Source: Anaerolineales bacterium
GTDB lineage: Bacteria; Chloroflexota; Anaerolineae; Anaerolineales; UBA11579
Direction of reading: 5' to 3'
NCBI GenBank assembly: GCA_026129255.1
Contig: JAHCIJ010000002.1
Span: forward strand, 322,234 to 386,233
Length of the DNA: 64,000 nucleotides
The first letter of the stretch is position 1. Every line of letters begins with the position of its first letter. Below are positions 5,637 to 64,000 of this stretch, in pieces. The position numbers and the translations under genes were made by a program. The notes under the pieces were generated by a model. It searched no databases. It worked only from the letters and a program-made list of their open reading frames with translations, and was not told the DNA's origin.

Positions 5637-5730
5637 AACCTCACCACAAAGACACAAAGGGTCACGAAGAAATCAAATCATCTCAAAGAACTAAATACTC
5701 ACTTTGTGTTCTTTGTGCCTTTGTGGTTTG
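5637..5730. repeat. Long imperfect inverted repeat built from (C)ACAAAG octamer-like units
   Basis: ccacaaagacacaaaggg... pairs with ...cactttgtgttctttgtgcctttgtgg. The same accacaaagacacaaagg motif occurs at 1539..1560. Confidence 0.65.
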
Positions 5731-5807
5731 CCTTAGCTTACAGCTTACGGCTTATATGCGGCTATAATCAGATGAATCAACGATCACTCAACTAAAGGAC
5801 TCATTGA

Positions 5808-18118: not shown

Positions 18119-18912
18119 GGCAGGGGCAGCGCGTGTCCAGCACCTGGCTGCTGGTGCTGCCCGGGCTGGCGCTCACCCTCGTGCTGGGGCTGCCGGTGGC
18201 CGCCCTGCTGCTGGAGGGCGTGGATACCCAGCTGCTGGCGCGCCTGGGGCAAGCCCAGGCGCTGGCCGCCCTGCGCCTGAGCCTGAGCACCAGCGTGGTC
18301 TCCACGCTGCTGGCTGTGCTCATGGGTACGCCGCTGGCTTTTGCGCTGGCGCGCTGGCGCTTCCGCGGCCGGGCGCTTATCGAGCTCATGGTGGATCTGC
18401 CCATCGTGCTGCCGCCCTCGGTCGCCGGCCTGGCCTTGCTGCTGGCCTTTGGCCGCCGCGGCCTGCTGGGCGAAAGCCTGACCGCCATGGGCATCAGCCT
18501 GCCCTTTACCACGGCCGCAGTGGTGCTGGCGCAGTTGTTTGTGGCCGCCCCGTTGTTTGTGCGCTCGGCGCGGCTGGGCTTTATCAATGTAGACAAGCAA
18601 CTCGAAGAGTCGGCCATCACCGAGGGCGCTACCCATTGGCAGCTCTTCCGCTATGTGATGGTGCCCACGGCTGGCACCAGCCTGGTCAGTGGCGCGCTGT
18701 TATGCCTGGCGCGCGCGCTGGGCGAGTTTGGCGCCACACTGCTGTTTGCTGGCAATCTCATGGGCCGCACGCAGACCATGCCCCTGGCGATCTATGTGGG
18801 CTTGGAGAGCGACCGCGGCGTGGCGGTGGCTCTCTCGCTGATCCTGCTGGGCGTATCCGCTGTGTTGTTGGCGGTGCTGCGTAGCCTGGAGCGCAATTGG
18901 AAGCTTGGCTAG
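18115..18912 (+). CDS. modB: Molybdate/sulfate-type ABC transporter permease, ModB-like
   Basis: DLPIVLPPSVAGLALLLAFGRRGLLG and LGEFGATLLFAGNLMGRTQTMPLAIY match ModB/CysT signature regions. The ATGA overlaps the upstream gene stop. Confidence 0.75.
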   Translation: MRQGQRVSSTWLLVLPGLALTLVLGLPVAALLLEGVDTQLLARLGQAQALAALRLSLSTSVVSTLLAVLMGTPLAFALARWRFRGRALIELMVDLPIVLPPSVAGLALLLAFGRRGLLGESLTAMGISLPFTTAAVVLAQLFVAAPLFVRSARLGFINVDKQLEESAITEGATHWQLFRYVMVPTAGTSLVSGALLCLARALGEFGATLLFAGNLMGRTQTMPLAIYVGLESDRGVAVALSLILLGVSAVLLAVLRSLERNWKLG

Positions 18913-19050
18913 TGGCCGTTACTTGCAGCACTGTCACTTATGAGGAGCTTGGCTAGTGGCCGTTACTTGCAGCCCCGTCACTTATGAGGAGCCTGGCTAA
19001 TGGCAGTTGTTTGCAGCCTGCTCGTTATATGGGGCCAGGGCTAGTGGCAC
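18904..19050. repeat. 44-bp tandem repeat (2 near-identical copies plus 1-2 degenerate), starting inside the last codons of modB
   Basis: cttggctagtggccgttacttgcagc(a/c)c(t/c)gtcacttatgaggag x2, then ctggctaatggcagttgtttgcagcctgctcgttatatggggccaggg, then ctagtggcacgtgg... Confidence 0.85.
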
Positions 19051-26263: not shown

Positions 26264-26425
26264 GCCATAAGCTGTTAGCAATTAGCTGTTAGCGGTTGAT
26301 TGCTTTTCCGCAGGCTGACCTCAGATACAGAGTCTATGATTGCCCTTCGCTTCGCTCAGGGCGACACTTATGAAGGCAGTCAGGGTTTGCTAATCACTAA
26401 TCACTAATCACTATTCCCGACTATC
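26264..26425. repeat. Heptamer-phased tracts flanking a GCCCTTCGCTTCGCTCAGGGCGAC element
   Basis: gccataa gctgtta gcaatta gctgtta gcggttg ... taatcac taatcac taatcac tattccc. The central element is the reverse complement of the one at about 40886..40910. Confidence 0.75.
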
Positions 26426-35770: not shown

Positions 35771-36559
35771 TTTAGCAGTCTTCTTAGCGGCTTTTTTGGT
35801 AGCCGTTTTCTTGGCAGCCGTCTTCTTTGTAGCTTTCTTGGCAGCCTTCTTCACAGTCTTCTTGGCCGGTGCTTTGGCTTTTGTCTTTGCCTTGATTTGG
35901 ATCGTGATTGGCTCAGGCACGCGATTGTGCCTGAACTTTAGCACCCCAGTGATTGGCTCAGGTACAGGTGTGCGCGTGAGCTTTAGCACCAGCGCGCTGA
36001 ACAACAGGAACAGGATGGTGATGCCCACACTGTAGAGGGCCACACCGCCATAGCCACCTTGCTCAATCGGATTCAGGAAACCATAGGGATACCAGTTGGC
36101 CAGCGGGCCGCGCAGCAAAGTGTAGAACAGGTAAGCCAGCGGGTAGATCAACCAGTACAGCCAGGTGTTCTTGGGCAGCTTGTCCTGCGGAGGGTAGACC
36201 AGCCAATCCACCAACGCCATCACCGGGTTGATGTAGTGCACCACCAGGTTGCTCCACGAGTAGAGCGACTCGATGCTGCTGCGCAGCATCACTTCGTAGA
36301 CCAGGCCCACCACCAGGATGAACACCACCGAGCCGCCGCGCAGCATTTCCTGCTTCACGGTGGGCTTGCGGTATTGGATCAGCGTCCAGGCTCCGCTGAG
36401 GTACACAAACACCAGCAGGATGTTTGTGAGGTTGGTGAAGTAGCTGAAGAAATTGGCCGGGCTGCCACCACTGCCCAGATTGAACTGTCTGATCAGGGCG
36501 GCAATCGTCGCTACTCCTAAAATAATGCGTAATGCGATAATGAATTTGCGTTTGTCCAT
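35753..36559 (-). CDS. Pr6Pr-family membrane protein paralog with a longer lysine-rich tail
   Basis: MDKRKFIIALRIILGVATIAALIRQ...FSYFTNLTNILLVFVY...NLVVHYINPVMALVDW... The tail is KAKTKAKAPAKKTVKKAAKKATKKTAAKKTATKKAAKKTAKQKSRR. Confidence 0.6.
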   Translation of the reverse strand: MDKRKFIIALRIILGVATIAALIRQFNLGSGGSPANFFSYFTNLTNILLVFVYLSGAWTLIQYRKPTVKQEMLRGGSVVFILVVGLVYEVMLRSSIESLYSWSNLVVHYINPVMALVDWLVYPPQDKLPKNTWLYWLIYPLAYLFYTLLRGPLANWYPYGFLNPIEQGGYGGVALYSVGITILFLLFSALVLKLTRTPVPEPITGVLKFRHNRVPEPITIQIKAKTKAKAPAKKTVKKAAKKATKKTAAKKTATKKAAKKTAKQKSRR

Positions 36560-41121: not shown

Positions 41122-41889
41122 ATGCGAGTACTCAAAGCGGCTGCCTTCTTGGCTATTATTGTGTTTTGTGGCTGGGCCTTGTGGAGCAGCAGCCGTAGCC
41201 CTGCGCCTACGGTGATCTTAGCCATCCCCACGCCAGAGTGCTCGCCGCAAGCCTTGCCGCCCAGCTACTACACCCTGACCAACTCGATGCGCGCCTTTGA
41301 CGATGCCTTGCTGCTGGCGGTCAACTTGCCGCGTGAGCAAGTGGTGCAGCAGGTGGAGCGCTTGCAGGAGCTGCGCCGCACGGTGGAGGCCGAGACCGCC
41401 CCCGCCTGCATGCAGACCTTCAAATCCAGCTTGCTGGCGTACATGAACCGGGTATTGGAGCTGCTGGTAGCCTTTGTGGGCGGCGCCGCCCCAGACTTGG
41501 TGATGCGCGGGCTGACCCAGGCGACCGAGCTACGCCTGCCGATCCAAGAGGCCATCGCCGCCCTCACTGGGGTGACGGTGACCCCGTACCCCACGATGCA
41601 GCCCCTCCCTGAGGCCACCCAGAGCTCGGATGTATCGATCCCTGTCACCGGCGCCAGCACGCTGCAAGCCATCGTAAGCCACACCGAGGGGGTCAACCTG
41701 CGCGAAGGGCCAGGGGTGCTGTTCAGCTTTGATGTGGTGCTGGCGTCTGGCACCCCGCTGCAGGTGCTAGGCAGCGATAGCAGCCGCCAATGGCTGCTGG
41801 TGAGCGACCCTCAGGGGCAGCAGGGCTGGGTTTTCCTGCCGTTGGTGACCCTGGAGGGCGATGTGAACAGCCTGAGTGTGGTTGAGTAG
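41122..41889 (+). CDS. Membrane-anchored protein with a C-terminal SH3b domain
   Basis: MRVLKAAAFLAIIVFCGWALW is the anchor. The C-terminal LQAIVSHTEGVNLREGPGVLFSFDVVLASGTPLQVLGSDSSRQWLLVSDPQGQQGWVF is SH3b. The 5' part of the listed ORF lies in the repeat cluster. Confidence 0.65.
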   Translation: MRVLKAAAFLAIIVFCGWALWSSSRSPAPTVILAIPTPECSPQALPPSYYTLTNSMRAFDDALLLAVNLPREQVVQQVERLQELRRTVEAETAPACMQTFKSSLLAYMNRVLELLVAFVGGAAPDLVMRGLTQATELRLPIQEAIAALTGVTVTPYPTMQPLPEATQSSDVSIPVTGASTLQAIVSHTEGVNLREGPGVLFSFDVVLASGTPLQVLGSDSSRQWLLVSDPQGQQGWVFLPLVTLEGDVNSLSVVE

Positions 41890-42030
41890 CGAATATTTAC
41901 TCATTGACAGAGTACTGAACTCGCTGAACGGGGTTGAGTAAGGAATTTACTCATTGACAGAGTACTAAACTCGCTGAACGGGGTTGAGTAGCGAATATTT
42001 ACTCATTGACAGAGTACTAAACTCCTAGTA
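41882..42030. repeat. About 52-bp tandem repeat x about 2.8, beginning at the stop codon of the SH3 gene
   Basis: ttgagtagcgaatatttactcattgacagagtactgaactcgctgaacgggg / ttgagtaaggaatttactcattgacagagtactaaactcgctgaacgggg / ttgagtagcgaatatttactcattgacagagtactaaactcc... Confidence 0.9.
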
Positions 42031-50943: not shown

Positions 50944-51447
50944 CTACTCAGCTTCGCTGAGCGACGCTTCTGCAGTCAACGGTTGGCTGGCGTCAATAGT
51001 CCAAGCAGAGAGGGTGCTGCGTGCTCCGCACGCGGTGCTGCGCACGCGGCAGAAGCTACTCAGCTTCGCTGAGCGACGCTTCTGCGGTGAGCGATTGCCC
51101 CAGCATCGATAATCCAGGCAGAGAGGTGCTGCGTGCTGCGCACGCGGCAGAAGCTACTCAGCTTTCGCTGAGCGACGCTTCTGCAGTCAACGGTTGGCTG
51201 GCGCCAATAATCCATGCGCTGGGGTGCTGCGTGCTACGCACGCGGCAGAAGCTACTCAGCTTCGCTGAGCGACGCTTCTGCGGTGAGCGATTGCCCAGCA
51301 TCGATAATCCAGGCGGAGAGGGTGCTGCGTGCTGCGCACGCGGCAGAAGCTACTCAGCTTCGCTGAGCGACGCTTCTGCGGTAAGTGATTGCCCAGCGTC
51401 AATAGTCCAGGCAGAGGGGTGTTGGGTGAAGCCGATGTGGGGGTAAT
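50944..51447. repeat. Five tandem ~98-112-bp units; the last is the real 3' end of the GNAT gene and the other four are downstream ghost copies
   Basis: ctactcagcttcgctgagcgacgcttctgc... starts at 50944, 51056, 51154, 51252 and 51350. Two sequence variants alternate. 51350 is the GNAT stop codon. Confidence 0.9.
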
Positions 51448-51909: not shown

Positions 51910-53394
51910 ATGCCACAAACAAAACACGTCCTTCCTATTTTCTTCATCCTGCTGTTGACCGTTTTGCTCACGGGGTGCTACTCCATCCAGCGTGAGCAGG
52001 TCTCGATCCAGGCCACGTTGAGCGCCATGCAGGACCAGATGCAAGGCACAGGCATGGGCGGCGACCATGCGATGGGTGGCACCAGCAGCGTCCCGGTCAG
52101 CCCGGCCGAGGTGCCGGATGGCCCGGCGGATGTCTCCTACACGCTCACCACCGGCACCAGCGGTCACAACCTGGTGTTCATTGGCGTAGGCGGGGAGATC
52201 GACGGCGCGCTCAACCCCACGTTGGTAGCGCAGCCCGGCGACATTGTGGAGATCACCCTGGTCAATGCCGAAGCCGTGCAGCACAACTTGCAGATTGACG
52301 ACTTTGGAGTGGACACCGGCTTTTTGACCTCGCAGGGCGAGGAGCAAACCATCAAGTTCGTTGTGGATCGCGAAGGCAGCTTCACCTACTATTGCATTGT
52401 CCCCGGCCACCAGGCCGCCGGCATGCAGGGCACCCTGCAGGTGGGCAGCGGTGACAGCGCCTCAGCGGCCACGGTGGTGAAGCACCCGGCCGACATCCCC
52501 GCGCCGGTTGGCGCCCGCGGCCCGCAGTTGGTGCAGGCCGAGCTGGTAGCCCAGGAGGTTGTGGGGCAGCTGGCGGATGGCACCACCTATCCGTATTTCA
52601 CCTTCAATGGCAGCGTGCCTGGGCCGTTCATCCGTGCCCGCGTAGGTGACACCGTAGAGATCACCCTGCGCAACGAGACCGAGAGCGCCTTCGTGCACTC
52701 GGTCGACCTGCATGCGGCCACCGGCCCCGGTGGCGGTGGCGATGTGTCGCAGGTGCAGCCCGGCGAGACCAAGGTCTTCACCTTTACGGCTTTGCAGCCG
52801 GGCATCTATGTGTATCACTGCGCCACGCCCAGCGTGCCGCACCACATTGCCAGCGGCATGTTCGGCCTGATCCTCATCGAGCCGGCAGGCGGCTTGCCGC
52901 CGGTGGACCGCGAGTTCTATGTGATGCAGAGCGAGATCTATACGCTGGAGCCGTTCGGCACGCCAGGCGAGCTGACCTTTAGCCATGAGAAGATGTCCAA
53001 CGAGCGGCCGGAGTACTTTGTGTTCAATGGCGCGGTGGGCGCGATGGGTCTGGCGAGCGAAGACTTCATGCTCAACGCCAATGTGGGCGAAACCGTGCGC
53101 ATCTTTATGGGCGTGGGTGGGCCAAACTTCACCTCCTCGTTCCATGTCATCGGTGAGATCTTTGACCGGGCGTATGCGTTCGGGTCGCTGACGGCGCCTC
53201 CGCTCACAGATGTGCAGACGATCAGTGTGCCACCCGGCGGGGCGGTGATGGTGGAGTTCCGCGTGGACTACCCCGGTCATTATGTGCTGGTGGACCATGC
53301 GCTCAGCCGCTTGGAGCGCGGTCTGGTGGGTATCCTGCATGTGGACGGCACGGCGAACCCCAACATCTTCAAAGAAGGGCCAGCTAACCCGTAG
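51910..53394 (+). CDS. nirK: Copper-containing nitrite reductase NirK with an N-terminal cupredoxin domain and a lipoprotein signal
   Basis: LLLTVLLTGCYS has a lipobox. The extra type-1 Cu domain is ...VQHNLQI...YYCIVPGHQAAGMQG. The NirK core is HSVDLHAATGPGGGG...YVYHCATPSVPHHIASGMFGLILIEP. Confidence 0.9.
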   Translation: MPQTKHVLPIFFILLLTVLLTGCYSIQREQVSIQATLSAMQDQMQGTGMGGDHAMGGTSSVPVSPAEVPDGPADVSYTLTTGTSGHNLVFIGVGGEIDGALNPTLVAQPGDIVEITLVNAEAVQHNLQIDDFGVDTGFLTSQGEEQTIKFVVDREGSFTYYCIVPGHQAAGMQGTLQVGSGDSASAATVVKHPADIPAPVGARGPQLVQAELVAQEVVGQLADGTTYPYFTFNGSVPGPFIRARVGDTVEITLRNETESAFVHSVDLHAATGPGGGGDVSQVQPGETKVFTFTALQPGIYVYHCATPSVPHHIASGMFGLILIEPAGGLPPVDREFYVMQSEIYTLEPFGTPGELTFSHEKMSNERPEYFVFNGAVGAMGLASEDFMLNANVGETVRIFMGVGGPNFTSSFHVIGEIFDRAYAFGSLTAPPLTDVQTISVPPGGAVMVEFRVDYPGHYVLVDHALSRLERGLVGILHVDGTANPNIFKEGPANP

Positions 53395-53494: not shown

Positions 53495-54571
53495 TTATTG
53501 CCCCGAGCGATTGTTGCGGAACGAGATCGCCATTGAAATGAAGAAGAGCAGGATAGCGATGCCGTTGAGCATGCCGCCCCAACGGCGGATGCTGGCCTCT
53601 TGCAGCAGGTTGCCGATGATGCGCACGATGAGCGAAGTGTGCAGCAAGGCCAGCGGGGCGTAGAGCACCGGGTGATAGACGGCGGTGCGTGCCAGGATGG
53701 CAGGCAGGATGATCGGCCCGTGGGCAAACACCATGGAGAGTACGAAGCCCACGAACAGGCCGTGCCAATAGGCATCGTAGATCAGGCCGGCCACCTGCGG
53801 CCCGTGCAGCAGGCCGAGGGTGGCGCTGAACACCATCCACACATAGCCGAGCCCCAATGCGCAGGCGATGTAGCGCGGCAGGCCGCGGGAGCGCAGGGTG
53901 ACGCGCACAACGTCGTAGCGCATGAACCACAGGCCGAGCGCCAACAGGCCGATGTTGTACACGCGTGCGCCGAGGGCAAAGTCGAATGCCACCAGGCTGG
54001 CGCCTCCAAGTATGGCCGCAGTGGCCAGTAAGAAGGCTGACTGGGCGGCGCGGCTAGGGCGCAGCAGGCGGCCGAGCTCCAGGCGCTCACCGGCGATGGT
54101 GAGCACCAGGAAGGCGGCCCACCAGTACACCACAATGGAAAGCGGCAGGCCTGCCACCCACAGCAGGTTGCCTACCAGCCAGCTGGTGGCGCCCAGCGCC
54201 ATGATGGTGGTGTAGTTGGCGGGCACTTGGCGCACGATGCGCCAGCCCACCAAGGCGAAGCTGGCGCTGGCGGCCAGGATGAGCAGGCCGCCGGGCAGCG
54301 AGCGCCCAGCGACGAGCAGCAGGCCGCCCACGGCGCTGAGCACCGGGCCGAGGTACATCCAGCGCCGCCCGAGCGCTACGGCGCGCTCCAGGGCGATGAG
54401 CGTGCCAAAGAAGCCGCAGATCATTAGTGGGCCGTGGGCGATGGGCAGCTGGCTGGGCAGGCTGGGCAGCGCCCAGCCGATGCGCGCCAGCCCGGCCAGC
54501 ACGGCCAACACCAGCAGGGCCACGCTGGCGGCCAGGATGGGGAGACGAAACTTGATGTTTGGAGCGTTCAT
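53495..54571 (-). CDS. nnrS: NnrS-family membrane protein
   Basis: The 358-aa protein has about 10-12 TM helices. ...AHGPLMICGFFGTLIALERAVAL... and conserved His positions. Convergent with nirK, the usual genomic partner. Confidence 0.7.
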   Translation of the reverse strand: MNAPNIKFRLPILAASVALLVLAVLAGLARIGWALPSLPSQLPIAHGPLMICGFFGTLIALERAVALGRRWMYLGPVLSAVGGLLLVAGRSLPGGLLILAASASFALVGWRIVRQVPANYTTIMALGATSWLVGNLLWVAGLPLSIVVYWWAAFLVLTIAGERLELGRLLRPSRAAQSAFLLATAAILGGASLVAFDFALGARVYNIGLLALGLWFMRYDVVRVTLRSRGLPRYIACALGLGYVWMVFSATLGLLHGPQVAGLIYDAYWHGLFVGFVLSMVFAHGPIILPAILARTAVYHPVLYAPLALLHTSLIVRIIGNLLQEASIRRWGGMLNGIAILLFFISMAISFRNNRSGQ

Positions 54572-54650
54572 TGCCTGTAGTCTACTGCGATTTGCTGGGT
54601 AGGCGTAGAGCGCACCGCGCGGTCTCTATCAATTCTTTAAGCTTTTGGCA

Positions 54651-54797
54651 TTGCTTTTTGCGCTCAACCTAATAAAATATGCAAAATGACGGTGGATGGA
54701 GACTGTCCTGTCCCAGCTGCTATGGGGGAGCCAAGTAGCGAAACTGTACGGGCGAAGTCGTGGCCACGGCTGCGGAACCCCAGGTACAGTTTTTTTG
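54651..54797 (+). promoter_or_regulatory. Candidate promoter plus ~140-nt leader ending in an intrinsic terminator, immediately upstream of the ABC-transporter operon
   Basis: TTGCTT (54651..54656), 16 nt, then TAAAAT (54673..54678). The hairpin aaactgtac...cgtggccacg...gtacagttt is followed by ttttttt (54741..54797), 29 nt before the ATG at 54826. No + strand gene lies upstream for it to terminate. Confidence 0.5.
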
Positions 54798-54825
54798 TTT
54801 AACAATGTTTAAGGAGAAAGAGAGA

Positions 54826-55887
54826 ATGGCATTGAACAAAATCAAGAATGTTGTATTACTGCTGCTGGCGGCGGCCTTGTTGGCTGCCTGTGGGGGCAGC
54901 GCAGCTGCCCCCAACTCCAAGTTGGTGGTGCTGGAGTGGTCGGGCTATGAGGAGCCCAGCTATTGGGAACCCTTTGCCCTGCAACATCCGGACATTTCGC
55001 CGGAATACAGCTTTTTTGGTGAGGACGCCGAAGCCTTTTCCAAAGCGCAGAGCGGCTTCCAGTTTGATGTGGTGCACCCCTGCGGCAGTTGGTGGGGTTT
55101 GTATGTAGAGGCCGGCCTGGTGCAGCCTTTGGATGTATCGCGCCTCTCCAATTTTGACCAGCTGTTTCCCGAGTTGACCGCGCATGGCGTCATCAACGGC
55201 GAGCAATACTTCATCCCGTGGGACTGGGCGTACGAGTCGATCACTGTGCGCACGGACCTGGTGGACGAAGTGCCGGACGCCTGGGCTGACCTGTGGGACC
55301 CGCAGTACGCTGGCAAAGTCGCCATCTTCGACTCGGGCGAATCGACCTTCCTGACCGCGGCGTATGCGTTGGGTTATGACCCGTACGACACCACGCCGGA
55401 GCAGCAGCAGGAGATCAAGCAGCACCTGATCGCCCTGAAGCCTAACCTGCTGACCTACTGGGTGGATTACACCGAGATCAACCAGCTGCTGGCCGCTGGC
55501 GATGTGGCCGTGGGCGCCAACACTTGGAACGACGCCTGGGCCACTTTGGCTGACGAAGGCTACGAGGTGGAGTACGTTGACCCGATCGAGGGCCGCATCA
55601 GCTACGCGTGTGGCTTTGGTATCGCCACCAACTCCACCAATGTGGACCTGGCGTATGACTACATCAACGCCCTGATCGATGCGCAGTCCAACGCCAACAT
55701 GGCCAACGACTTCTACTACGGCGCCGCCAACATGGACTCGGTCCCGCTGTTGGACCCGGCCCTGGTAGCCCGCTTCCAGTTTGATGATCCGTCTGTGCTG
55801 GCCAGCAGCAACTTCCAGCACCCGCTGACGCAAGCGCAGCGCGAGATGATGACCGCCATCTGGAATGAAGTCAAGGCGGGGCAGTAA
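54826..55887 (+). CDS. ABC transporter substrate-binding lipoprotein, PotD/PotF-like family
   Basis: AAGGAGAAAG RBS. MALNKIKNVVLLLLAAALLAACGG has a lipobox. Overall polyamine/Fe3+-type SBP pattern. Ligand unknown. Confidence 0.7.
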   Translation: MALNKIKNVVLLLLAAALLAACGGSAAAPNSKLVVLEWSGYEEPSYWEPFALQHPDISPEYSFFGEDAEAFSKAQSGFQFDVVHPCGSWWGLYVEAGLVQPLDVSRLSNFDQLFPELTAHGVINGEQYFIPWDWAYESITVRTDLVDEVPDAWADLWDPQYAGKVAIFDSGESTFLTAAYALGYDPYDTTPEQQQEIKQHLIALKPNLLTYWVDYTEINQLLAAGDVAVGANTWNDAWATLADEGYEVEYVDPIEGRISYACGFGIATNSTNVDLAYDYINALIDAQSNANMANDFYYGAANMDSVPLLDPALVARFQFDDPSVLASSNFQHPLTQAQREMMTAIWNEVKAGQ

Positions 55888-55988
55888 CGCTCGTCTGAGT
55901 TGTATGTAGTGTGAGCGATCACTGATGCAAATGGAGCAGGGCGGGAGGCTTACGCGCATCCCGCCCTGCTCTCTGCTAAGGACCAAGC

Positions 55989-56840
55989 ATGGAAAACAAG
56001 CGCCGCCTGTTTACTTTGATCACGCCGCCCTCGGTGTTTTTGCTGTTCTTCTTTATGGTGCCGTTGGTCATCATGGCGCTGTATGCATTTAAATCAAGTA
56101 GCTTCGGCCCGCTGTTTCCGCTTTCGCTCAATGCGTTCAATAACTTTTTTTCCAACCCCGCTTACTTTGTCCTTCTTATAAACTCCAGCCAGCTGGCGCT
56201 GCTCACTGCGGTGCTCTCCATTGTGCTGGCCTTCCCGGTTTCCTATTACTTGGTGTTTTACACCGGCTCGCGCCGCGTGATGCTGCTGACGTTGTTGATC
56301 TTGCCGGCCTGGATCAGCTACCTGCTGCGTGTGCTGGCCTGGAAAGTGATCCTGGGTTCTGAGGGTTTGCTGAACCAGCTGCTCCTCGCTACAGGCTTGA
56401 TCCAGGATGGTGCGCCGATCCTGCTGTACAGCCAGGCGGCGGTGCTGATCACGCTGGTGTATGTGTGGATCCCGTTTGCGGCGCTGCCGATCTTTGCCGC
56501 TATGGAGCGCATTGACCCGCGCCTGCACGAGGCAGCCGCCGACCTGGGCGCCTCGCCCAGCGTTACCTTTTGGCGGGTGACCGCGCCGCTGACGATGCCG
56601 GGTGTGGCTTCGGCGTTCTTCTTTGTGTTCATCCCCACGCTGGGCGAGTGGGTCACGCCCACGCTGGTGGGCGGGGTGAGCGGCATCATGTATGGCAACC
56701 TGATCCAGGACCAGTTTGGGCGCGCGCTCAACTGGCCGCTCGGCGCCCTGATGAGCATGGTCTTGCTGGTGCTGGTGGGCGTGTTCAGTTACGTCTTCAA
56801 CCGCTTTATCCCGATCACCGAAGTGCCGGTGTCAAGCTAA
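55989..56840 (+). CDS. ABC transporter permease (PotB-like)
   Basis: Six TM helices and the EAA-type loop ...MERIDPRLHEAAADLGASPSVTFWRVTAPL... Confidence 0.8.
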   Translation: MENKRRLFTLITPPSVFLLFFFMVPLVIMALYAFKSSSFGPLFPLSLNAFNNFFSNPAYFVLLINSSQLALLTAVLSIVLAFPVSYYLVFYTGSRRVMLLTLLILPAWISYLLRVLAWKVILGSEGLLNQLLLATGLIQDGAPILLYSQAAVLITLVYVWIPFAALPIFAAMERIDPRLHEAAADLGASPSVTFWRVTAPLTMPGVASAFFFVFIPTLGEWVTPTLVGGVSGIMYGNLIQDQFGRALNWPLGALMSMVLLVLVGVFSYVFNRFIPITEVPVSS

Positions 56841-56865
56841 ATATGAAGGCGCAAGCTATGCAAAG

Positions 56866-57672
56866 GTGCCGCCAATGAGGCAGACGGGCAAGTGGGTGGG
56901 GCTGGGCTATTACCTGCTGCTGCTGCTATTTTTGCAGCTGCCGATTTTGTTATTGATCGTATTCTCGTTCAATGACTCGGTGCTGCTGGTGTTCCCGCTC
57001 AAGGGGTTCACCTTGCAGTGGTACCGCGAGCTGTTGCAGGCCACCGAGCTGATCAATGCCGCCAAGAACAGCCTGATCATTGGCCTGGTCTCCTCGGTGG
57101 TGGCCACGGTGTTGGGCAGCGCGGCGGCGATCGCCATTGCGCGCTACAACTTCCCTGGGCGTGCGTTCTTCCTCAATATTGCGACGCTGCCGCTGGTGAT
57201 CCCGTATGTAGTGTTGGCGGTGGCCTTGCTGCTGATGTTCCAGGCGTTGAATGTGGAACTCAGCCTGTGGACGATCATGATCGGCCACACGATCATCAAC
57301 ATGCCGTATGTCATGCTCATCGTAGCGGCGCGCCTTTCTGGGTTCGCCAATAATCTCGAAGAAGCGGCGATGGACCTGGGCGCCACGTACTGGGGCACGC
57401 TGATGCGCGTGACCCTGCCGATCTCCATGCCGGCGCTGGTGGCGGCGTTCTTGTCTTCGTTCACCATGTCGTTCGACGAGTTCTCGCTGGCGTTCTTCCT
57501 GGCGGGCACGCAGAATACGTTGCCGGTGTACTTGTACTCGCAGCTGCGCTTCCCCAGCCGTTTGCCGCTGGCAGTGACCACGGCAGCAGTGGTTATTATG
57601 GTGTCTGTGGTGATCTTGCTCTTCAGTGAGTGGTTACGGCGCATTGGGACGGGTAGGGTGCCGAAGAGTTAG
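56866..57672 (+). CDS. ABC transporter permease (PotC-like)
   Basis: ...NNLEEAAMDLGATYWGTLMRVTLP... is the EAA loop. The start may be the ATG at 56875. Confidence 0.8.
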   Translation: MPPMRQTGKWVGLGYYLLLLLFLQLPILLLIVFSFNDSVLLVFPLKGFTLQWYRELLQATELINAAKNSLIIGLVSSVVATVLGSAAAIAIARYNFPGRAFFLNIATLPLVIPYVVLAVALLLMFQALNVELSLWTIMIGHTIINMPYVMLIVAARLSGFANNLEEAAMDLGATYWGTLMRVTLPISMPALVAAFLSSFTMSFDEFSLAFFLAGTQNTLPVYLYSQLRFPSRLPLAVTTAAVVIMVSVVILLFSEWLRRIGTGRVPKS

Positions 57673-57785
57673 GAATAGAGATAGAGAGAATAGAGATTGG
57701 AGATTTGTAACTGGTAACTAGCAATTGGTACTCGTGCGAGCTAGTGCAATTCCTGATTACTGGTTACGAATTACTGATGACGAGG
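57673..57785. repeat. Heptamer-phased intergenic tract inside the ABC operon
   Basis: aatagag atagaga gaataga gattgga ... tgtaact ggtaact agcaatt ggtactc ... gattact ggttacg aattact. Confidence 0.7.
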
Positions 57786-57789
57786 ATCT

Positions 57790-59058
57790 ATGAAACCATT
57801 GGCAGTTGAGCTCAAGAACGTAAGCAAGGTCTTCTCCGGCGCGGGGCGCGGGGAGGGGTTGATGCATGCCGTCAAAGGCGTGGACCTGGAGATCAAGCAG
57901 GGTGAATTCTTCACCATGCTTGGCCCCAGTGGTTGCGGCAAGACCACTACGCTGCGCATGATCGCCGGTTTTGAGTTCCCCACCAGTGGTGACATCTACT
58001 TGAATGGCGAGCTATCCAACGATGTGCCGCCCTACAAGCGCCCGGTGAACACCGTGTTCCAAAGCTATGCGCTGTTCCCGCATCTCACTGTGGCGCAGAA
58101 TGTGGGTTTTGGCCTGGCGGTCAAGCGCGTACCCAAGGCGGAGCGCGACGTACGCGTGCGTGAGGCGCTAGAGCTGGTGAAGCTGGGCCAGTTGGGTGAG
58201 CGCAAGCCCAACCAACTCTCCGGCGGCCAGCAGCAACGCGTGGCGCTGGCGCGTGCGCTGGTGAACCGCCCGGCGGTGCTGCTGCTGGATGAGCCGCTGG
58301 GTGCGCTGGACCTCAAGCTGCGCGAGACCATGCAGCACGAGCTGAAGGACCTGCAAAGGCGCGTGGGCATTACCTTTATTTATGTGACCCACGATCAGGA
58401 AGAAGCGCTCACGATGAGCGACCGGATTGCCGTGATGAACGAAGGCCGCGTGCAGCAGGTCGGGTCGCCGGAGCAGATCTACAACTTCCCCGCCAATCAC
58501 TTTGTGGCTGACTTCATTGGTGATACCAACTTCCTTGAAGGCAAAGTGGTGTCCTTGCATCAAGACCGCACGGTGCTCAAAGTGGGCCGTGAAGACGTGA
58601 CCGCCGCGCCGGCCAACTTCCCGTTGATGCCGGGGCAAAAGGTCACCATGGTGATCCGGCCCGAGAAACTGGGCGTGGCGCGCGAGCTGGCGCCGGCCCT
58701 GGCGCCGGGCGCCGAAGCGCCGCCAGCGGCGCCGAGCAACCCGGCCAAGGCGCCGCAGCCGCGTGTGAACGCGGTGATGAATGCGCGCGTGCTGGATTCG
58801 GTGTTCCTGGGCACTGATACGCGTGTAGAAGTGACGCTGAAAGGCGGCACGGAGCTGACCGTGCTGGTGCGCAATCTGGACGATGACGAGGAGTTCAAGA
58901 AGGGCGAGAAAGTGGTGTTGACGTATGATGCGTTCGACTCGCGCTTGTTGCCTGCGGCGCAACTAGGCACCACGGAGGAAACCTACATTGGCAATGGGGA
59001 GCATCCATTGCCGCCACCCAGTGAGCCAGCCAAGGATGAATCAAAAAAGACGCCATAA
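57790..59058 (+). CDS. ABC transporter ATP-binding protein (PotA-like) with an extended C-terminus
   Basis: [17 protein letters not shown] (Walker A), [15 protein letters not shown] (signature), [11 protein letters not shown] (Walker B). The C-terminal part holds TOBE-like and low-complexity regions. Confidence 0.9.
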
Positions 59059-59071
59059 GGCGTCTTTTTTT
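59043..59071. terminator. Bidirectional intrinsic terminator
   Basis: aaaaaagacgcc-ataa-ggcgtcttttttt. Confidence 0.85.
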
Positions 59072-59083
59072 GTCGCGTTTTGC

Positions 59084-59863
59084 TTAGCTCAATACGTTTT
59101 GTACGTGGAAGCGCTTTTGTATAACAGCAGGTGGGAAGTAGGCGATATAGATCAGTGCCAGGGCAGCGATGCCTATCAAGCGAATGGTGAGCGGCCACCA
59201 GGTGGTGGCGTTGGGGTTGATGCCGAACGCTACGATGAAAATGAGCGGGATGAAGTAACCCAGGCCAAAGATGGTGAACAAACCCAGCGGCACAAGCAGG
59301 GCGCGGAACTTTGCACTGGGTTCTGTGATGCGGAAGTACAGGCTGAACATGCCGATGCTGGCCACGATGGGCGGCAGGCTCATCAACGCGATCAGCGCAA
59401 TACCGAACAGCAGGCCAAACACGCCCTGCGGCTCGTTTTGGTATTGGATCAAAGCTTCCCAGGTGCCCATGCTGACGCCGATGGGGCGCAGCAGATAAAT
59501 GGACGCCAGCAGCCCAACGCCGAAGGCGATGTAGAAGCCCGCGATCCAGCCGGAGAAACGGTGAGAGCCCTTGAAGATATACATGAGGTAGGTGAGCAAG
59601 CCCCACAGGGCGGGAGCCGCCGACAGCGTGGCGGCCAGGCTGAAGAGCACGAAGAGGGGCAGGTAATCGATGCCCAGGCCGAGGGCCAGCACAGACAGGC
59701 CGTTGATGCCGGTGTTGGCGGCCATGCCGTACCACCAGACGCGGAAGGCGCGCCAGGCGCGTGCATCTTGTGGGTCTGCGAAGCGCTTGCGGCTTAGTGA
59801 GTGCCCAATAAAAAAGTACAGTGCGCTGTTGGCAAAGAAGATTGCGAGTGAGGGAAAGTTCAT
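59084..59863 (-). CDS. Hypothetical polytopic membrane protein
   Basis: The 259-aa protein has about 8 hydrophobic helices (MNFPSLAIFFANSALYFFIGHSL...). The listed overlapping ORFs are alternative-frame artefacts. Confidence 0.6.
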   Translation of the reverse strand: MNFPSLAIFFANSALYFFIGHSLSRKRFADPQDARAWRAFRVWWYGMAANTGINGLSVLALGLGIDYLPLFVLFSLAATLSAAPALWGLLTYLMYIFKGSHRFSGWIAGFYIAFGVGLLASIYLLRPIGVSMGTWEALIQYQNEPQGVFGLLFGIALIALMSLPPIVASIGMFSLYFRITEPSAKFRALLVPLGLFTIFGLGYFIPLIFIVAFGINPNATTWWPLTIRLIGIAALALIYIAYFPPAVIQKRFHVQNVLS

Positions 59864-59902
59864 TGTGGTGTGTGGCCTAAAGCCGCCATCCTGTGAATAG
59901 CA

Positions 59903-60055
59903 TCATATGAGCCGGGCGGCGCGTTGAGCCAGCGTGTCGCCCAATTGCTTGGCGGCTGGAAGCGGTGGAGCCTGGATGGGCTTCACTTTGTTTTGGCTGA
60001 GCTTGCGCGGCGGGCGCGCTTTGCGCTTGGAGCCTTTGGCTGGGGGCTTCGCCAT
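59903..60055 (-). CDS. Possible small basic protein (50 aa), below the ORF-track cutoff
   Basis: Own translation: MAKPPAKGSKRKARPPRKLSQNKVKPIQAPPLPAAKQLGDTLAQRAARLI. No convincing RBS. Confidence 0.25.
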   Translation of the reverse strand: MAKPPAKGSKRKARPPRKLSQNKVKPIQAPPLPAAKQLGDTLAQRAARLI

Positions 60056-60208
60056 CGTTGTCCTATCAGCGATGATAGTGGAAATTCATATTGGCGCAAA
60101 TGACCTTGCATAACTGTTAGGTCGTCCAGCAGCTTGATAGCGGCGCCGGATCCGGGGAGGGAACCAGCAGCCTGTGCTATACCGTGGTTCAAAGGGGGAA
60201 TGATAGAC

Positions 60209-60760
60209 ATGGATGCAGACGTTTCAGTGGGGGAGCAAGAGCCGACAGCGGCAACGGCGAGCAGCTCGGGGAGCACCTCGGGGAGCAAGAAACAGCAACG
60301 CATCGCTGACCTTGTGAAGGCGCAACTGCGCGACCAGCTGAAGGAGGAGCTGGCGGAGGTGTTGGAAGCGCGCCTGGAGGCGCTGGCGGCCGAGCGCGGT
60401 GACGCCAGCGAGCCGGACGCGCCGCCTGAGCTGCAAGTGCTGGACGCCTTGCAGCAGGCGGGCTTGGAGCACGACCCAGGCGTGCGGCGCCTGCTGCAGC
60501 AGGCGCAAGCCGGGGAGCCGCAGGCCGAGTTGCGTGCGCTGGCAGACCTGGCCAGCTTGGCGCTGGCGCGCATTACGCGCATCGGCGGGGCGGGCACGGC
60601 ACGTGCCAGCCGGGCCATCCCGCCCGGTGGAGCAGGCGCACCCGCGCCCGACCTGCGCGCTGAGTATGCACGGCGGCTGGCGGCAGTGCGCGCCGGGGAT
60701 GTGAGCGGCCTGCTGGAGGTCAAGCGCGAGTTCAGGAAGCGGGGGCTGGAAGTGTATTAA
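60209..60760 (+). CDS. Putative phage scaffolding-like protein
   Basis: CAAAGGGGGA lies 9 nt before the ATG at 60209. The product is acidic and Ala/Leu/Glu-rich helical (QLRDQLKEELAEVLEARLEALAAERG...). It sits immediately upstream of the capsid gene. The call rests on position and composition only. Confidence 0.4.
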   Translation: MDADVSVGEQEPTAATASSSGSTSGSKKQQRIADLVKAQLRDQLKEELAEVLEARLEALAAERGDASEPDAPPELQVLDALQQAGLEHDPGVRRLLQQAQAGEPQAELRALADLASLALARITRIGGAGTARASRAIPPGGAGAPAPDLRAEYARRLAAVRAGDVSGLLEVKREFRKRGLEVY

Positions 60761-60774
60761 ATGCAAGGATGAGG

Positions 60775-61025
60775 GATGAAGAAGAAGGGAGAAGGGAGAA
60801 GAGAGTGGAGATTGCTGATCGCTGATTGTTGATTTGAGAGCGGCAAGGAAGGAGAAAGGAGAAGGGAGAAGGGAGTGAGATTGCTGATGGCTGACTGTTG
60901 ATTTGAAAGCGGCAAGGAGAAGGGAGAAGGGAGTGGGGATTGCTGATGGCTGACTGTTGATTGTTGATTTGAAAGCTGGCTGCTGATTGCTGGCAGCTAA
61001 TGGCTAACGGCTAATAGCTAACAGC
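60775..61025. repeat. About 65-70-bp tandem repeat x3, heptamer-phased throughout, between the scaffold-like and capsid genes
   Basis: (aagggag aagggag tg.gagat tgctgat ggctgac tgttgat ttgaaag cggcaag) x3, then gctaatg gctaacg gctaata gctaaca gctaaaa. Confidence 0.85.
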
Positions 61026-61041
61026 TAAAAGGGGGATTTGA

Positions 61042-62172
61042 ATGGCAATTTACGATGGTATGAAGACAACTTATGCGGACACTGCGGCGCAGGCGCGGGC
61101 GATCAGCAATGTGGTGCAGATGATCGATCCGCGCGATACGCCGCTGCTGGCGCGCCTGGGGCTGGACAGCGCCCGCGAGAAGTTCAAGATCCGTATGAAC
61201 GGGCACAAGGTGGAGCTGCTGGAAGACGAGCTCGATCCGCTGGTGACGGCCGCCAACAACGGCGAGACGATCACCACCTCGGCCACCAGCTTTGTGGTGG
61301 CGGATGCGTCTGTGTTTCAGGATGGGTACGTCATCCTGATCGATGCGGAGTACATGGTGGTCAAGAGCGTGGACCTGGGCACCAACACCGTGACGGTGTA
61401 CAGCCGCGCCTATGGCGGCACGAACGCCACGCATGCCGCCACGGCGGCGATCCAGATCACGGCGATGGCGCGCCTGGAGGGCGAAGATGCCGACTACGGC
61501 CCGCTGGTGGCGCTGAACGCGCCGTTCAACTACACCAGCATCTTCCAGAAGGCGGTGCAGGTGAGTGGCACGCAGCAAGCCATCAGCCAATACGGCATCG
61601 AGGACGAGTTCCAGTATCAAGCCAATAAGGCCGTGCCGCACCTGCTGCGCCTGGTGGAAGGCGCAGCCTTCCACGGCGTGCGTGCGGCGGGCTCGGCGAG
61701 CACGCCGCGCTCGATGGGCGGGCTGGGCACCTTCATCACCAACAATACGGTGGATGCCGGCGGGGCCATCGCCAAGGCGGATGTGGACGGGCTGATGGAA
61801 GAGATCGTGATGGATGGCGGCAACCCGGACCTGCTGGTGATGAACCCGCGCGTCGCCAATGATCTGCGCGGCCTGCTGGACAACAGCAGCTTCGTACGCG
61901 TGAACCAGGATGAAAGCAAGCTGGGCTTGCGGCCGATCGAGCGCGTGGTGACGCAGTACGGCGAGCTGGAGCTGGTGATGGATCGCTGGTGCCCGGTGCA
62001 CACGGCCTATGTGCTGGAGAGCGGCAAGGTGGGCTTCTATACCTTGCGCGGCTTCGAGGCCAAAGAGCTGGCGCGCTCCGGTGACAGCCTGAAGGGTGAG
62101 GTGGTGGGTGAGCTCAGCCTGTTGGTGGCCAACAACAAGGCGCACGGCAAGATCACGGGGATCACGACGTAG
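61042..62172 (+). CDS. Phage major capsid protein, SU10/DUF5309-type (HK97 fold)
   Basis: CTAAAAGGGGGATTTGA precedes the ATG. ...DTPLLARLG...VELLEDELD...ARLEGEDADYG...NYTSIFQKAVQVSGTQQAISQYGIEDEFQYQ...RSMGGLGTFI...GGNPDLLVMNP...VVTQYGELELVMDRW... matches my recollection of this capsid family. Confidence 0.75.
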   Translation: MAIYDGMKTTYADTAAQARAISNVVQMIDPRDTPLLARLGLDSAREKFKIRMNGHKVELLEDELDPLVTAANNGETITTSATSFVVADASVFQDGYVILIDAEYMVVKSVDLGTNTVTVYSRAYGGTNATHAATAAIQITAMARLEGEDADYGPLVALNAPFNYTSIFQKAVQVSGTQQAISQYGIEDEFQYQANKAVPHLLRLVEGAAFHGVRAAGSASTPRSMGGLGTFITNNTVDAGGAIAKADVDGLMEEIVMDGGNPDLLVMNPRVANDLRGLLDNSSFVRVNQDESKLGLRPIERVVTQYGELELVMDRWCPVHTAYVLESGKVGFYTLRGFEAKELARSGDSLKGEVVGELSLLVANNKAHGKITGITT

Positions 62173-62199
62173 TGAAGAGTGAGCGGTGAGCAGGAAGAC

Positions 62200-62300
62200 T
62201 CGTTGCTTGGTCGCCTGGTTGCTTAGTCGCTTAGTCACCTAGTTACTGTTTACTGTTTACTGATCACTAATCACTGATTACTGATCACTTGCTTACTGAG
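62200..62300. repeat. Heptamer-phased tract downstream of the capsid gene
   Basis: gttactg tttactg tttactg atcacta atcactg attactg atcactt gcttact. Confidence 0.8.
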
Positions 62301-62312
62301 TGAATTCTGGAA

Positions 62313-62403
62313 GTGGGGTGTGGCTGGCTGCAGCCAGCCACACCCCACAGCGCGGCGATATCGCGCGCGTAGGCCTGGGCGAGGGGGAGCCCAGGCCTAT
62401 TTA
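62313..62403 (+). terminator. Two strong hairpins after the capsid gene
   Basis: gtggggtgtggctggc-tgca-gccagccacaccccac (16-bp stem), and taggcctgggc-gaggggga-gcccaggccta followed by ttt. Confidence 0.65.
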
Positions 62404-62462
62404 ATCCACCCTGTTTCTGTTTTTGATGTATAACTAATGAAACTAGATGGGGGCGAAAATTT

Positions 62463-64000
62463 TTGATTAGTAGAACTACTGCAGCTTTGCGATCATGGAG
62501 TACCTTTGCCTCACGGGCGGTGCGCTTTGCGCTGGTCCTGATGATCGGCGCTGAGGGGCCGCTGCTGGCGCTGCAAGTGCAGGGCGCCTCGCTGGAGGCT
62601 GCTGAGAGCCTGATCCCGCAGGAAGCCAGTACGTTTTATCCCGTTTACACAGATGTTGAATACACGCCGGATTACGGCACCACGCTCCAGAGGACGCTGC
62701 CTGCAAAAGAAGAGGCTGCGCTTGTCTTTGAGCTGATCGCCGAGCCCGGCCTGGTGGGCAAGGATGGGCTGCTCTCACTGCGTGTGCGCATTGTCAACAA
62801 CACGGGCGATGCGCTCAAGACGGTGCGCTTTGTGGATACGCTTGAGCCTGGGCTTGAGTTTGTTGATGCAGAGCCGCGCGAGGTGCAATACAACGCGCGG
62901 TTGCGAGAGGTTGTCTTCACGCAGGCGGAATTGGCGGCAGGGGCAACGCTTGAGATCAGGTTCAGGTTGCGCGTCACGGCGACTGATTTCACAGCGGATG
63001 AGATCTGGCTGCATACGGCCAATCTGGGCGTAGGCTCGCAGGAATACACAGCCAGCACGGTTTTCTCGGTCGGGGAGCTTTCGCTAGCGGCGCTTGAGCT
63101 CGGCGTAGTTTCGGAGCGCGGTGGCTGGGTGCAGGGCGAGCGCACGGCGATCTACTTCCCGGCGGATGCCGTGGCGGAGAGCGCTGTGGTGCGCGTGAGC
63201 GAGCTGGCGCAGCGTATTGCCGGCGGGCCGGAGTTGCAATTTGAGGTTGAGCTGCTGGGTGCGCCGGGGCTAGTGCAGGCGCAGGGCGTGGTTGAGGAAT
63301 CTCAGCGGATCGCGCTGGGCGAAGAACTGGAAGGCAGCCTCCGTGAGCCCGCTTTGCTCGAAGTCAGTTTTGATCCCATTGTGGACCTGAGCGCGATACC
63401 AGCAGGCAAGGAGCCGTATGTGGCCACCTATGACCCCGAGTACGAAGTGTGGGTCAAGGCGCCGATCGTGGCTGTGGATGCACACAGCAACACGGTGACG
63501 GTGGAGACCCATCACTTCTCCACCTGGGGCGGCGGGCTGGGCGACAGCCTGCCGCAGAATGGGGCAGGCGCCCTGTTGTTTGACCAGCCCTATACGGCGC
63601 TGTTCACGGGTGGTGCGCAATACTCGATCCCGATCTGGACGCCGCCGGGCAGAGCGGGCATGCAGCCGGATATCCGCCTGAGCTATTCGAGCCGCACGGT
63701 GGACGGTGTGCTGGGCGATGTGCAGGCGCCGTGGGTGGGCGTGGGCTGGAACATCGATGCGGTCGAGATCGTGCGCAAGATCACCACCAGCCCCACGGGC
63801 TATGGCTACGTCAATGAGTTTGCGCTGACGTTCAACGGTGAGGAGCACAAGCTGGTGGCCGATGCGCAGAACCCCAGCCGCTACTACACCGAGCGGGCCT
63901 CTTTTCTTTACATTGAGCGCCACAATGCGGCGTTGGAAAATGGGCCAGCCCCCAACACCACGGGGGAGTGGTGGGAGATCGTGGCCACGGATGGCACACG
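62463..64000 (+). CDS. 5' part of a giant secreted protein: signal peptide, DUF11-like repeat domain, SpvB/TcaC-N-like domain (RHS/YD-repeat toxin architecture expected downstream)
   Basis: Own translation; the frame is open from 62427 to the window end and is absent from the track. (TTG)ISRTTAALRSWSTFASRAVRFALVLMIGAEG...LRVRIVNNTGDALKTVRFVDTLEPGLEFVDAEP (DUF11-like) ...PPGRAGMQPDIRLSYSSRTVDGVLGDVQAPWVGVGWNI (SpvB-type motif). Confidence 0.65.
   Translation, partial: MISRTTAALRSWSTFASRAVRFALVLMIGAEGPLLALQVQGASLEAAESLIPQEASTFYPVYTDVEYTPDYGTTLQRTLPAKEEAALVFELIAEPGLVGKDGLLSLRVRIVNNTGDALKTVRFVDTLEPGLEFVDAEPREVQYNARLREVVFTQAELAAGATLEIRFRLRVTATDFTADEIWLHTANLGVGSQEYTASTVFSVGELSLAALELGVVSERGGWVQGERTAIYFPADAVAESAVVRVSELAQRIAGGPELQFEVELLGAPGLVQAQGVVEESQRIALGEELEGSLREPALLEVSFDPIVDLSAIPAGKEPYVATYDPEYEVWVKAPIVAVDAHSNTVTVETHHFSTWGGGLGDSLPQNGAGALLFDQPYTALFTGGAQYSIPIWTPPGRAGMQPDIRLSYSSRTVDGVLGDVQAPWVGVGWNIDAVEIVRKITTSPTGYGYVNEFALTFNGEEHKLVADAQNPSRYYTERASFLYIERHNAALENGPAPNTTGEWWEIVATDGT

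Follow-up and report, generated by a model that had tools for sequence, protein, structure and literature searches.

Heptamer-phased arrays with gene-relative polarity in the intergenic spacers of an Anaerolineales genome

Tandem heptanucleotide arrays have been reported for 35 years from cyanobacteria, Xanthomonas, Burkholderia and Beggiatoaceae, and we know of no agreed function for them. In heterocystous cyanobacteria they include the short tandemly repeated repetitive (STRR) sequences, whose families STRR1-3 have the unit consensus CCCCAGT, TTGGTCA and CAACAGT, and which occupy many dispersed non-coding loci with several unit families per genome. The REP/BIME elements of Escherichia coli, which are linked to RAYT transposases, are scattered copies of one defined palindrome of 35-40 nt; the malE-malF REP stabilises upstream mRNA.

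The survey of prokaryotic long SSRs by Mrazek, Guo and Shah (2007), as it is represented in PMC4679880 and PMC4692102, found the heptamer to be the commonest unit and proposed polymerase slippage as the origin. By the same accounts, the repeats are tandem units of 5-11 nt in arrays longer than expected by chance, with a scattered phylogeny and with units that are not a multiple of three kept out of genes, and the survey predates Anaerolineae genomes. The GGGAATC and GGGGA(C/T)T repeats of Xanthomonas and Nostoc are biased to non-coding DNA, vary in length between strains, are fewer between divergent genes and prefer four units, giving four G-tracts that form G-quadruplexes (Rehm et al. 2015; PMC4692102). 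The TAACTGA direct repeats of marine Beggiatoaceae, some cyanobacteria and Bacteroidetes point toward start codons and overlap the expected ribosome-binding site, mostly without one being present (MacGregor 2015; PMC4679880). Modest reporter effects of heptamer repeats are described in a Nostoc preprint. A full-text literature search on heptamer repeats in combination with Chloroflexi or Anaerolineae yielded no report.

The window analysed here is a stretch of 64,000 nt from an Anaerolineales metagenome-assembled genome (MAG), in which the original prediction listed six intergenic segments keeping a strict 7-nt period and likened them to cyanobacterial STRR. Each segment was compared with 2000 dinucleotide-preserving shuffles, at lag 7 and at any lag from 2 to 14, and period-7 arrays were called with Tandem Repeats Finder (Table 1). 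The lag-7 match fraction was 0.63 at 26264-26300, 0.71 at 26385-26425, 0.48 at 57673-57785, 0.64 at 60775-61025 and 0.49 at 62200-62300, and none of the 2000 shuffles reached these values at any lag. The sixth segment (5733-5768, about three units) gave 0.41, which was equalled by 85 of 2000 shuffles at lag 7 and by 842 of 2000 when any lag was allowed, so that it is not significant as delimited. In each of the five other segments, lag 7 ranks first or second among lags. The period-7 signal therefore survives comparison with shuffles in five of the six segments; the word strict was too strong for 57673-57785, which is an imperfect hairpin with heptamer-phased arms, and for 62200-62243, where the period is 8. 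The gene context is as the prediction had it, with one tract between the permease and ATPase genes of an ABC transporter and arrays on both sides of a capsid gene.

Table 1. Repeat arrays, stem-loops and neighbouring genes in the window (TRF, Tandem Repeats Finder).
Feature	Position	Strand	Remarks
AGCTTAC array	5735-5754	not assigned	2.9 units; short, individually weak
GCCATAA and AGCTGTT-type array	26257-26297	+	GCCATAA x2, then AGCTGTT-type x4
CTAATCA array	26390-26413	-	3.4 units, 100% matches
Period-7 arrays	5735-5754, 26257-26272, 26270-26297, 26390-26413		TRF
ABC permease gene	56875-57672		second permease
Permease stop to ATPase start spacer	57673-57789	+	117 nt
ABC ATPase gene	57790-59058		
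Main heptamer-phased array	60765-61031	not assigned	lag-7 match 0.64, 0/2000 shuffles
Higher-order copy 1	60778-60845		(AGAAGGG-type)x3-4 + (GATTGCT-type)x4 + GAGAGCGGC
Higher-order copy 2	60846-60914		
Higher-order copy 3	60915-60981		has one extra GATTGTT unit and one less purine-rich unit than copy 2
AGCTAAN array	60994-61028	+	5 units, C>G on sense strand
Period-7 arrays	60783-60805, 60810-60834, 60849-60875, 60916-60933, 60938-60992, 60994-61028		TRF
SU10-type major capsid protein gene	61042-62172	+	Pfam PF17236, E 3.7e-62; PHROG 1328 major head protein
GTGAAGA/GTGAGCG/GTGAGCA units	62172-62195	+	G-rich on sense strand; begin at capsid stop codon
Octamer-phased T(A/G)GT(C/T)GC(T/C)-type run	62205-62243	not assigned	four to five units
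Period-8 array	62205-62236		TRF
TTACTGT/TCACTAA/TCACTGA array	62243-62299	+	about 8 units
Period-7 arrays	62243-62262, 62259-62289		TRF
Perfect GC-rich stem-loop	62315-62346	+	14-16 bp; downstream of arrays
Stem-loop with GAGGGGGAG loop	62371-62398	+	strong GC stem-loop; followed by ATTTAAT

Other repeats in the window include an inverted pair of 8-9-nt repeat runs at 5650-5730 (CACAAAGA-type, then CTTTGTG-type), forming a hairpin whose arms are repeat-phased, immediately ahead of the weak AGCTTAC array. Further tandem arrays have units of 98 nt (x4.0, 84% matches, 51035-51428, upstream of a copper nitrite reductase gene at 51910-53394), 50 nt (x2.8, 41880-42024), 44 nt (x2.7, 18902-19018) and 45 nt (x1.9, 35904-35990).

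The autocorrelation scan that had been suggested as a check was run over the whole genome (2.38 Mb in 7 contigs, 60% GC), using gene calls from a simple codon-bias ORF scorer (2135 genes, 87.6% coding), with which distances to start codons are approximate. Period 7 is enriched in the 1246 spacers of 30 nt or more (z 8.3 at lag 7 and 9.4 at lag 14); lags 8 and 16 stand out too, and lags 10, 11, 13, 17, 19 and 20 do not. A strict local scan at lag 7 found 37 tracts, with 94% of their bases non-coding, versus 1 in shuffles, and a relaxed scan found 109 tracts, 89 of them non-coding, versus 8.5 in local shuffles; in all, 85-94% of the bases in lag-7 tracts are non-coding. The window holds nine of the 89 non-coding tracts, five of them around the capsid gene. 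The relaxed scan gave 62 tracts at lag 8 (47 non-coding, versus 7 in shuffles) and 11-21 tracts at lags 5, 10, 11 and 13 versus a shuffle level of 7-9.5, and the tracts at lags 6, 9, 12 and 15, the multiples of 3, are mostly coding. The reading of the periodicity as an artefact of composition or chance, expected of AT-richer spacers in a GC-rich genome, would fit the segment at 5733-5768 taken alone. It retains practically no probability next to the five segments that beat every shuffle, the genome-wide excess of tracts and the background level of lags 5, 10, 11 and 13, and we consider it already refuted by the shuffle tests and genome-wide scans. Helical phasing, in which three 7-nt units (21 bp) would span about two turns, was considered but dropped, since neither lag 10 nor lag 11 is enriched.

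A non-coding octamer-phased class parallels the heptamers, with examples at 62205-62243 in the window and at C1:323634-323682 and C2:624638-624696 elsewhere in this genome (G000). Many octamer arrays are built from palindromic units (GACTAGTC, GATTAATC), so that the whole array is a long palindrome, and the class is far commoner here than in three same-genus samples (10 vs 2 per 400 kb). The longest array in the genome, a perfect CAGTGAG x19 at G000 C2:519281-412, lies 30 nt past a gene end without an inverted partner and looks like a recent expansion.

Four unit families recur among the non-coding lag-7 tracts of the genome, each alongside its own complement: AGTGAnn with nnTCACT, AGCTGTT with AGCTAAC, a GATTGCT type, and purine-rich AAGGGAG, AAGGATG and GGAGATT with pyrimidine-rich complements. 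The families grade into one another within single arrays. Tandem heptamers dispersed over many non-coding loci, the coexistence of several unit families in a genome and variable copy number are shared with STRR, and to that extent the cyanobacterial likeness holds in kind. However, the host belongs to the Chloroflexota, its closest genomes are Anaerolineales/Anaerolineaceae MAGs, and not one doublet of any of the three STRR consensus units occurs in the whole genome. The arrays are therefore an analogue of STRR, or a generic heptameric SSR, rather than members of STRR1-3.

The properties of generic heptameric long SSRs are all found here, namely tandem 7-mers beyond chance, an excess of length 7 and copy-number change by whole units; the differences lie in strongly degenerate, drifting units, the octamer class and many inverted pairs. 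With the GGGAATC repeats the arrays share a non-coding bias, the same polarity, and occupation of the same intergenic site in relatives with extensive variation in length and sequence. The units here are G-poor, in contrast to the GGGAATC type, which is absent in tandem from this genome, and the depletion between divergent genes amounts to a non-significant trend only (14 arrays observed vs about 21 expected, chi-square p about 0.18). The TAACTGA repeats resemble these arrays in their TNACTNA-type heptamer, intergenic and start-facing placement, 'split' sets with related 7-mers and patchy occurrence among relatives. TAACTGA itself has 0 doublets (90 singletons) in the whole genome, and the units here are instead TCACTGN, TTACTGN and TAATCAC. 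The present arrays also leave a normal Shine-Dalgarno (SD) site, and many have an inverted partner, unlike the TAACTGA repeats. Hairpin arms, the parallel octamer class and a fixed polarity relative to genes all go beyond what the original prediction described. Together, the arrays are a new phylum-level host record and a somewhat richer variant, with degenerate units, octamers and polar hairpins, and not a new kind of element.

Placement of the arrays follows gene ends closely. Stop-proximal arrays lie at a median of 5 nt from the stop (35 of 53 within 10 nt), and start-proximal arrays at a median of about 26 nt from the start. In the convergent spacer 26264-26410, the stop codons of both flanking genes fall inside the first array unit: that of a PMT-like glycosyltransferase gene (26261-26263) lies in the first unit of the GCCATAA and AGCTGTT-type array, and the CTAATCA array ends on the stop of a minus-strand cobalamin adenosyltransferase gene, on whose sense strand it reads as TAGTGAT-type units directly after the stop. 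Unit orientation differs between the two gene ends. On the sense strand, AGTNA and TNACT occur 17:7 near stops and 3:10 near starts (Fisher p 0.0075), so that TNACT units near starts (10 sense vs 3 antisense) have the forward orientation of the TAACTGA repeats; AGCT plus T-rich units follow stops 8:1, and AGCT plus A-rich units precede starts 4:0. Stop triplets after stops are more frequent on the sense strand, and ATG/GTG triplets near starts are depleted three-fold (0.31 per 21 nt sense vs 0.93 antisense). GC skew is the common denominator of array polarity: near stops, 36 tracts have a positive and 14 a negative skew (Mann-Whitney U p 0.002, stops vs starts), the average before starts is -0.18 (15 positive, 20 negative), and in unpaired arrays the skew remains positive after stops (24:5).

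This skew, positive after stops and negative before starts, is consistent with a reading in which the arrays would act on DNA structure or transcription, with G-rich non-template strands after genes forming R-loops or G4-like structures that slow or end transcription, and C-rich, G-poor RNA before starts loading Rho and coupling transcription to translation. Rho is encoded in 23 of 23 genomes of the genus, and the similarly placed G-rich heptamer family of Xanthomonas and Nostoc forms G4 in vitro (PMC4692102). Nevertheless, four G3 tracts at 7-nt spacing were matched at a single place in the genome, outside any array, most units carry one or two G, and many C-rich arms are locked in hairpins, and we judge this reading to be quite improbable.

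The most extensive array in the window fills the capsid leader, a 281-nt spacer that is almost wholly heptamer-phased. It begins 5 nt past the stop of the upstream gene (60758-60760), an uncharacterised gene of 183-208 aa in scaffold position, with AAGGATG/AGGGATG units, continues through three higher-order copies and closes with AGCTAAN. The higher-order repeat of about 65-70 bp that had been proposed at 60775-61025 is real: its three copies measure 66-69 nt, each with an AGAAGGG/AAGGAGA run followed by a GATTGCT/GACTGTT run and a short GAAAGCGGC linker, and they share 88% mean column identity, the differences being whole heptamers. The AGCTAAN array adjoins a Shine-Dalgarno-like AGGGGGA (61030-61036) ahead of the capsid ATG at 61042, and the leader arrays stop 5 nt short of the capsid ribosome-binding site. 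The leader RNA folds no more stably than shuffles (z -0.44), and no inverted repeats or inverted termini were found around the main tract; a hairpin reading of this tract was rejected on both grounds. A search of the leader for a promoter or terminator consensus found none. The 281-nt leader is an unpaired, unstructured and recently expanded example, made up of three tandem 66-69-nt blocks.

The leader offers one example for an alternative in which the arrays are dedicated cis-regulatory RNA elements, multi-site platforms on which an RNA-binding protein or the ribosome would set translation or stability. The AAGGAG/GGGAG units could serve as SD-like 30S standby sites ahead of the capsid gene; about nine SD-like motifs in the leader are complementary to the genus 16S 3' end, GGATCACCTCCTTTCT (taken from the same-genus genome G011, the 16S rRNA gene being absent from the 92% complete assembly studied here). 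Units of the nnTCACT/TNACTNA type could likewise be sites for S1 or a cold-shock protein, as proposed for the TAACTGA repeats. Polarity relative to genes, the position of arrays directly before the ribosome-binding site or after the stop, persistence at the same site across species, and published proposals with limited reporter data for Beggiatoaceae and Nostoc are all consistent with such a role. A CsrA decoy of the CsrB/RsmZ type, with AAGGATG units as its GGA arrays, was rejected on the ground that no CsrA is encoded: no CsrA/RsmA was found in the genome, the best PF02599 match, in a 243-aa frame, reaching 23.6 bits and so missing the cut-off. This lack of CsrA also tells against RNA elements in general, as does the presence of purine-rich arrays in convergent spacers, where no downstream gene exists to be controlled. 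Moreover, neither unit sequence nor copy number is conserved from species to species at a shared site, several relatives are nearly array-free before the same capsid gene, and the array-poor species of the genus manage without most arrays. We therefore regard dedicated RNA elements as an unlikely explanation, although the least unlikely of the rivals weighed here.

Comparison with relatives shows how the arrays change. The tract-length comparison that had been proposed gave differences in multiples of 7 (7, 14, 21 and 28 nt): between G016 and G018, whose flanking DNA is 93-96% identical, arrays at other loci differ by gaps of 28, 14, 21 and 14 nt, and in the capsid leader AAGGATG occurs twice in G018 and three times in G016, while the leader of G019 exceeds that of G021 by one 7-nt unit. 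At one site, AAGCTAT x8 in G005 corresponds to CAGCTAT x7 in G016, a concerted unit change. Across 12 same-genus genomes the capsid leader ranges from about 45 to 281 nt, and the capsid protein stays 73-94% identical. AAGGATG-type units follow the upstream stop in the leaders of G018, G016 and G005, AGCTAAN-type units precede the capsid ribosome-binding site in G017, G002, G005 and G009, and GTGA-type units follow the capsid stop (as at 62172-62195) in G017, G002, G018 and G016; G011 and G014 have almost no array in the leader. The present length of the leader is probably tolerated without being needed.

Array load per 400 kb ranges from 18 in this genome and 16 in G016 to 5 in G021 and 4 in G011, and the same unit families are seen throughout the genus samples, array-rich and array-poor. 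Loss of mismatch repair as the cause of array richness was rejected, as 21 of the 23 genus genomes, array-rich and array-poor alike, encode MutL, and a repair defect therefore gives no account of the differences in load. Beyond single species, 10 of 22 other members of the genus have TCACTNN x4, as do 3 of 18 other genomes from the order (the reversed-pattern control is uninformative here, TCACT being identical when read backwards), and AGCTNNN x5 occurs in 11 of 301 Chloroflexota genomes sampled.

The capsid gene and the gene before it (60134-62172) are kept in 16 of 23 genus genomes at 73-94% amino acid identity; capsid homologues in the same identity range were found in Anaerolineales/Anaerolineaceae MAGs, one of them a closed 2.24-Mb chromosome. 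The locus is syntenic in five relatives (G016, G018, G002, G005 and G011), where the distance between the capsid gene and the ABC transporter ATPase gene found in the window is about 2-3 kb. It looks like a long-resident or domesticated one and not like a recent prophage. Relatives have a conserved gene (starting MSYTLSELLQDAY) after the capsid gene; in this genome the capsid locus is instead directly followed by a giant ORF (about 3100 aa, weak matches to SpvB and DUF11 domains), which runs from 62520 to the window end and on to about 71831 in window-frame coordinates.

A considerable fraction of the arrays is paired. An inverted partner, defined as a reverse complement no more than 130 nt away that outscores each of 50 flank shuffles, accompanies 34 of the 89 non-coding lag-7 tracts (about 38%), which form 30 loci. 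The purine-rich arm is 5' and the pyrimidine-rich arm 3' in 28 of the 30, and this polarity is strand-independent, since an inverted repeat reads identically on both strands. The median folding z-score of the paired loci is -2.84, with 22 of 30 below -2. The array hairpins have no U-tracts and are thus not canonical intrinsic terminators. Both arms of one hairpin occur at the same site in five species, their lengths varying independently, and this persistence hints at more than passive tolerance. Position, folding z-scores and persistence across species together suggest that the paired arrays likely act as RNA stem-loops. Rfam covariance models run on 54000-64000 gave no family at the gathering score, only sub-threshold chance matches.

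Two members of the paired class lie in the window, and the capsid leader is not among them. In the 3' region of the capsid gene, the GTGA-type units at the stop codon are the 5' arm of an imperfect hairpin, the octamer run makes up its apical part, and the start of the TTACTGT/TCACTAA/TCACTGA array is the pairing 3' arm (inverted-partner score 13 vs a null of 6.3). The stem-loop with the GAGGGGGAG loop farther downstream is a likely terminator; of the 12 same-genus genomes inspected, most have kept it after the capsid gene, where it persists even though the surrounding spacer has turned over completely. The other member is the permease-ATPase spacer, where a long imperfect hairpin, its arms heptamer-phased (TGTAACT GGTAACT ... 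GATTACT GGTTACG), comes after purine-rich AGAGATA/GGAGATT units; the fold z is -2.55 (2/200 shuffles). At the same junction G018 has an orthologous but diverged heptamer hairpin, and G002, G016 and G011 have unrelated hairpin repeat families; stem-loops thus have, in this position between cistrons, either a general sink or a selected slot. The repeats at the relatives' junction (L109-L113, from G018, G002, G016 and G011) include GGGAGAACGGGC...GCCCGTTCTCC hairpins and tandem GACGGGCAAGCCGTCC modules.

Imperfect stem-loops in intercistronic and 3' spacers, an ABC operon among them, and fast turnover recall REP/BIME, with the difference that the arms here are slippage-type heptamer arrays of variable length. 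If the tracts were small mobile elements of the MITE or REP kind, spread by a transposase or a REP-associated enzyme and not grown in place, the other hairpin families at this junction in relatives would fit in. However, the arrays lack conserved ends and a fixed length, change in place by whole units at orthologous sites and have unit families that intergrade within one array, and the main tract is without inverted termini. Mobile elements are accordingly a very improbable source, even less so favoured than an effect on DNA structure or Rho.

The explanation that we consider probable is that these are heptanucleotide arrays of the STRR or long-SSR kind, which slippage generates and selection in transcribed spacers filters; those that are paired are likely stem-loops. 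They would arise and turn over through slipped-strand mispairing in non-coding DNA, with whole units gained or lost and variant units spreading along an array, which would leave degenerate, 'drifting' arrays that differ between close species at the same intergenic site. Because a unit of 7 nt changes the reading frame and a stop triplet is present in most units, arrays would survive only outside genes, expanding up to the stop codon on one side and halting short of the ribosome-binding site on the other. In spacers that we infer to be transcribed, selection at the level of mRNA would filter orientation, leaving G-rich, stop-bearing units (AGTGAnn, AAGGGAG, AGCTGTT) on the sense strand after stops and C-rich, start-codon-poor units (nnTCACT, AGCTAAC) before starts. 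Such a polarity is expected if G-rich, GTG- or SD-like sequence does harm when it lies directly ahead of a real start, and stop-bearing sequence after a stop would be harmless or useful. About four in ten arrays are inverted pairs that would fold into long imperfect RNA stem-loops after stops or between cistrons, most likely 3'-end or intercistronic hairpins of stabiliser or terminator type, whose stem length may be tunable by slippage. Slippage alone does not explain why 7 and 8 beat 5, 10 and 11.

The same class of repeat is now found in the Chloroflexota, in the small genomes of a genus associated with wastewater and anammox. In MAGs of the Anaerolineae such tracts will confuse assemblers, gene-start calls and repeat annotators. 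The polarity shared with other systems and the split into unpaired arrays and polar hairpin pairs strengthen the view that general rules are at work, and the genus, whose array-rich and array-poor species share synteny, makes a compact set for comparison. A bolder and rather doubtful reading is that the arrays would not be junk but would form an evolvable, lineage-wide layer of expression tuning, with slippage-prone heptamers as adjustable intercistronic stem-loops and leaders. This idea draws on the fixed polarity, that is, stop-joined G-rich units, start-free C-rich leaders and hairpins that are purine-first in 28 of 30 loci. If it were true, the arrays would determine how stable mRNA 3' ends are, how far Rho gains access or how often re-initiation occurs, one example being the ratio of scaffold to capsid expression, and a change in copy number would act as a fast rheostat in Anaerolineales with small genomes.
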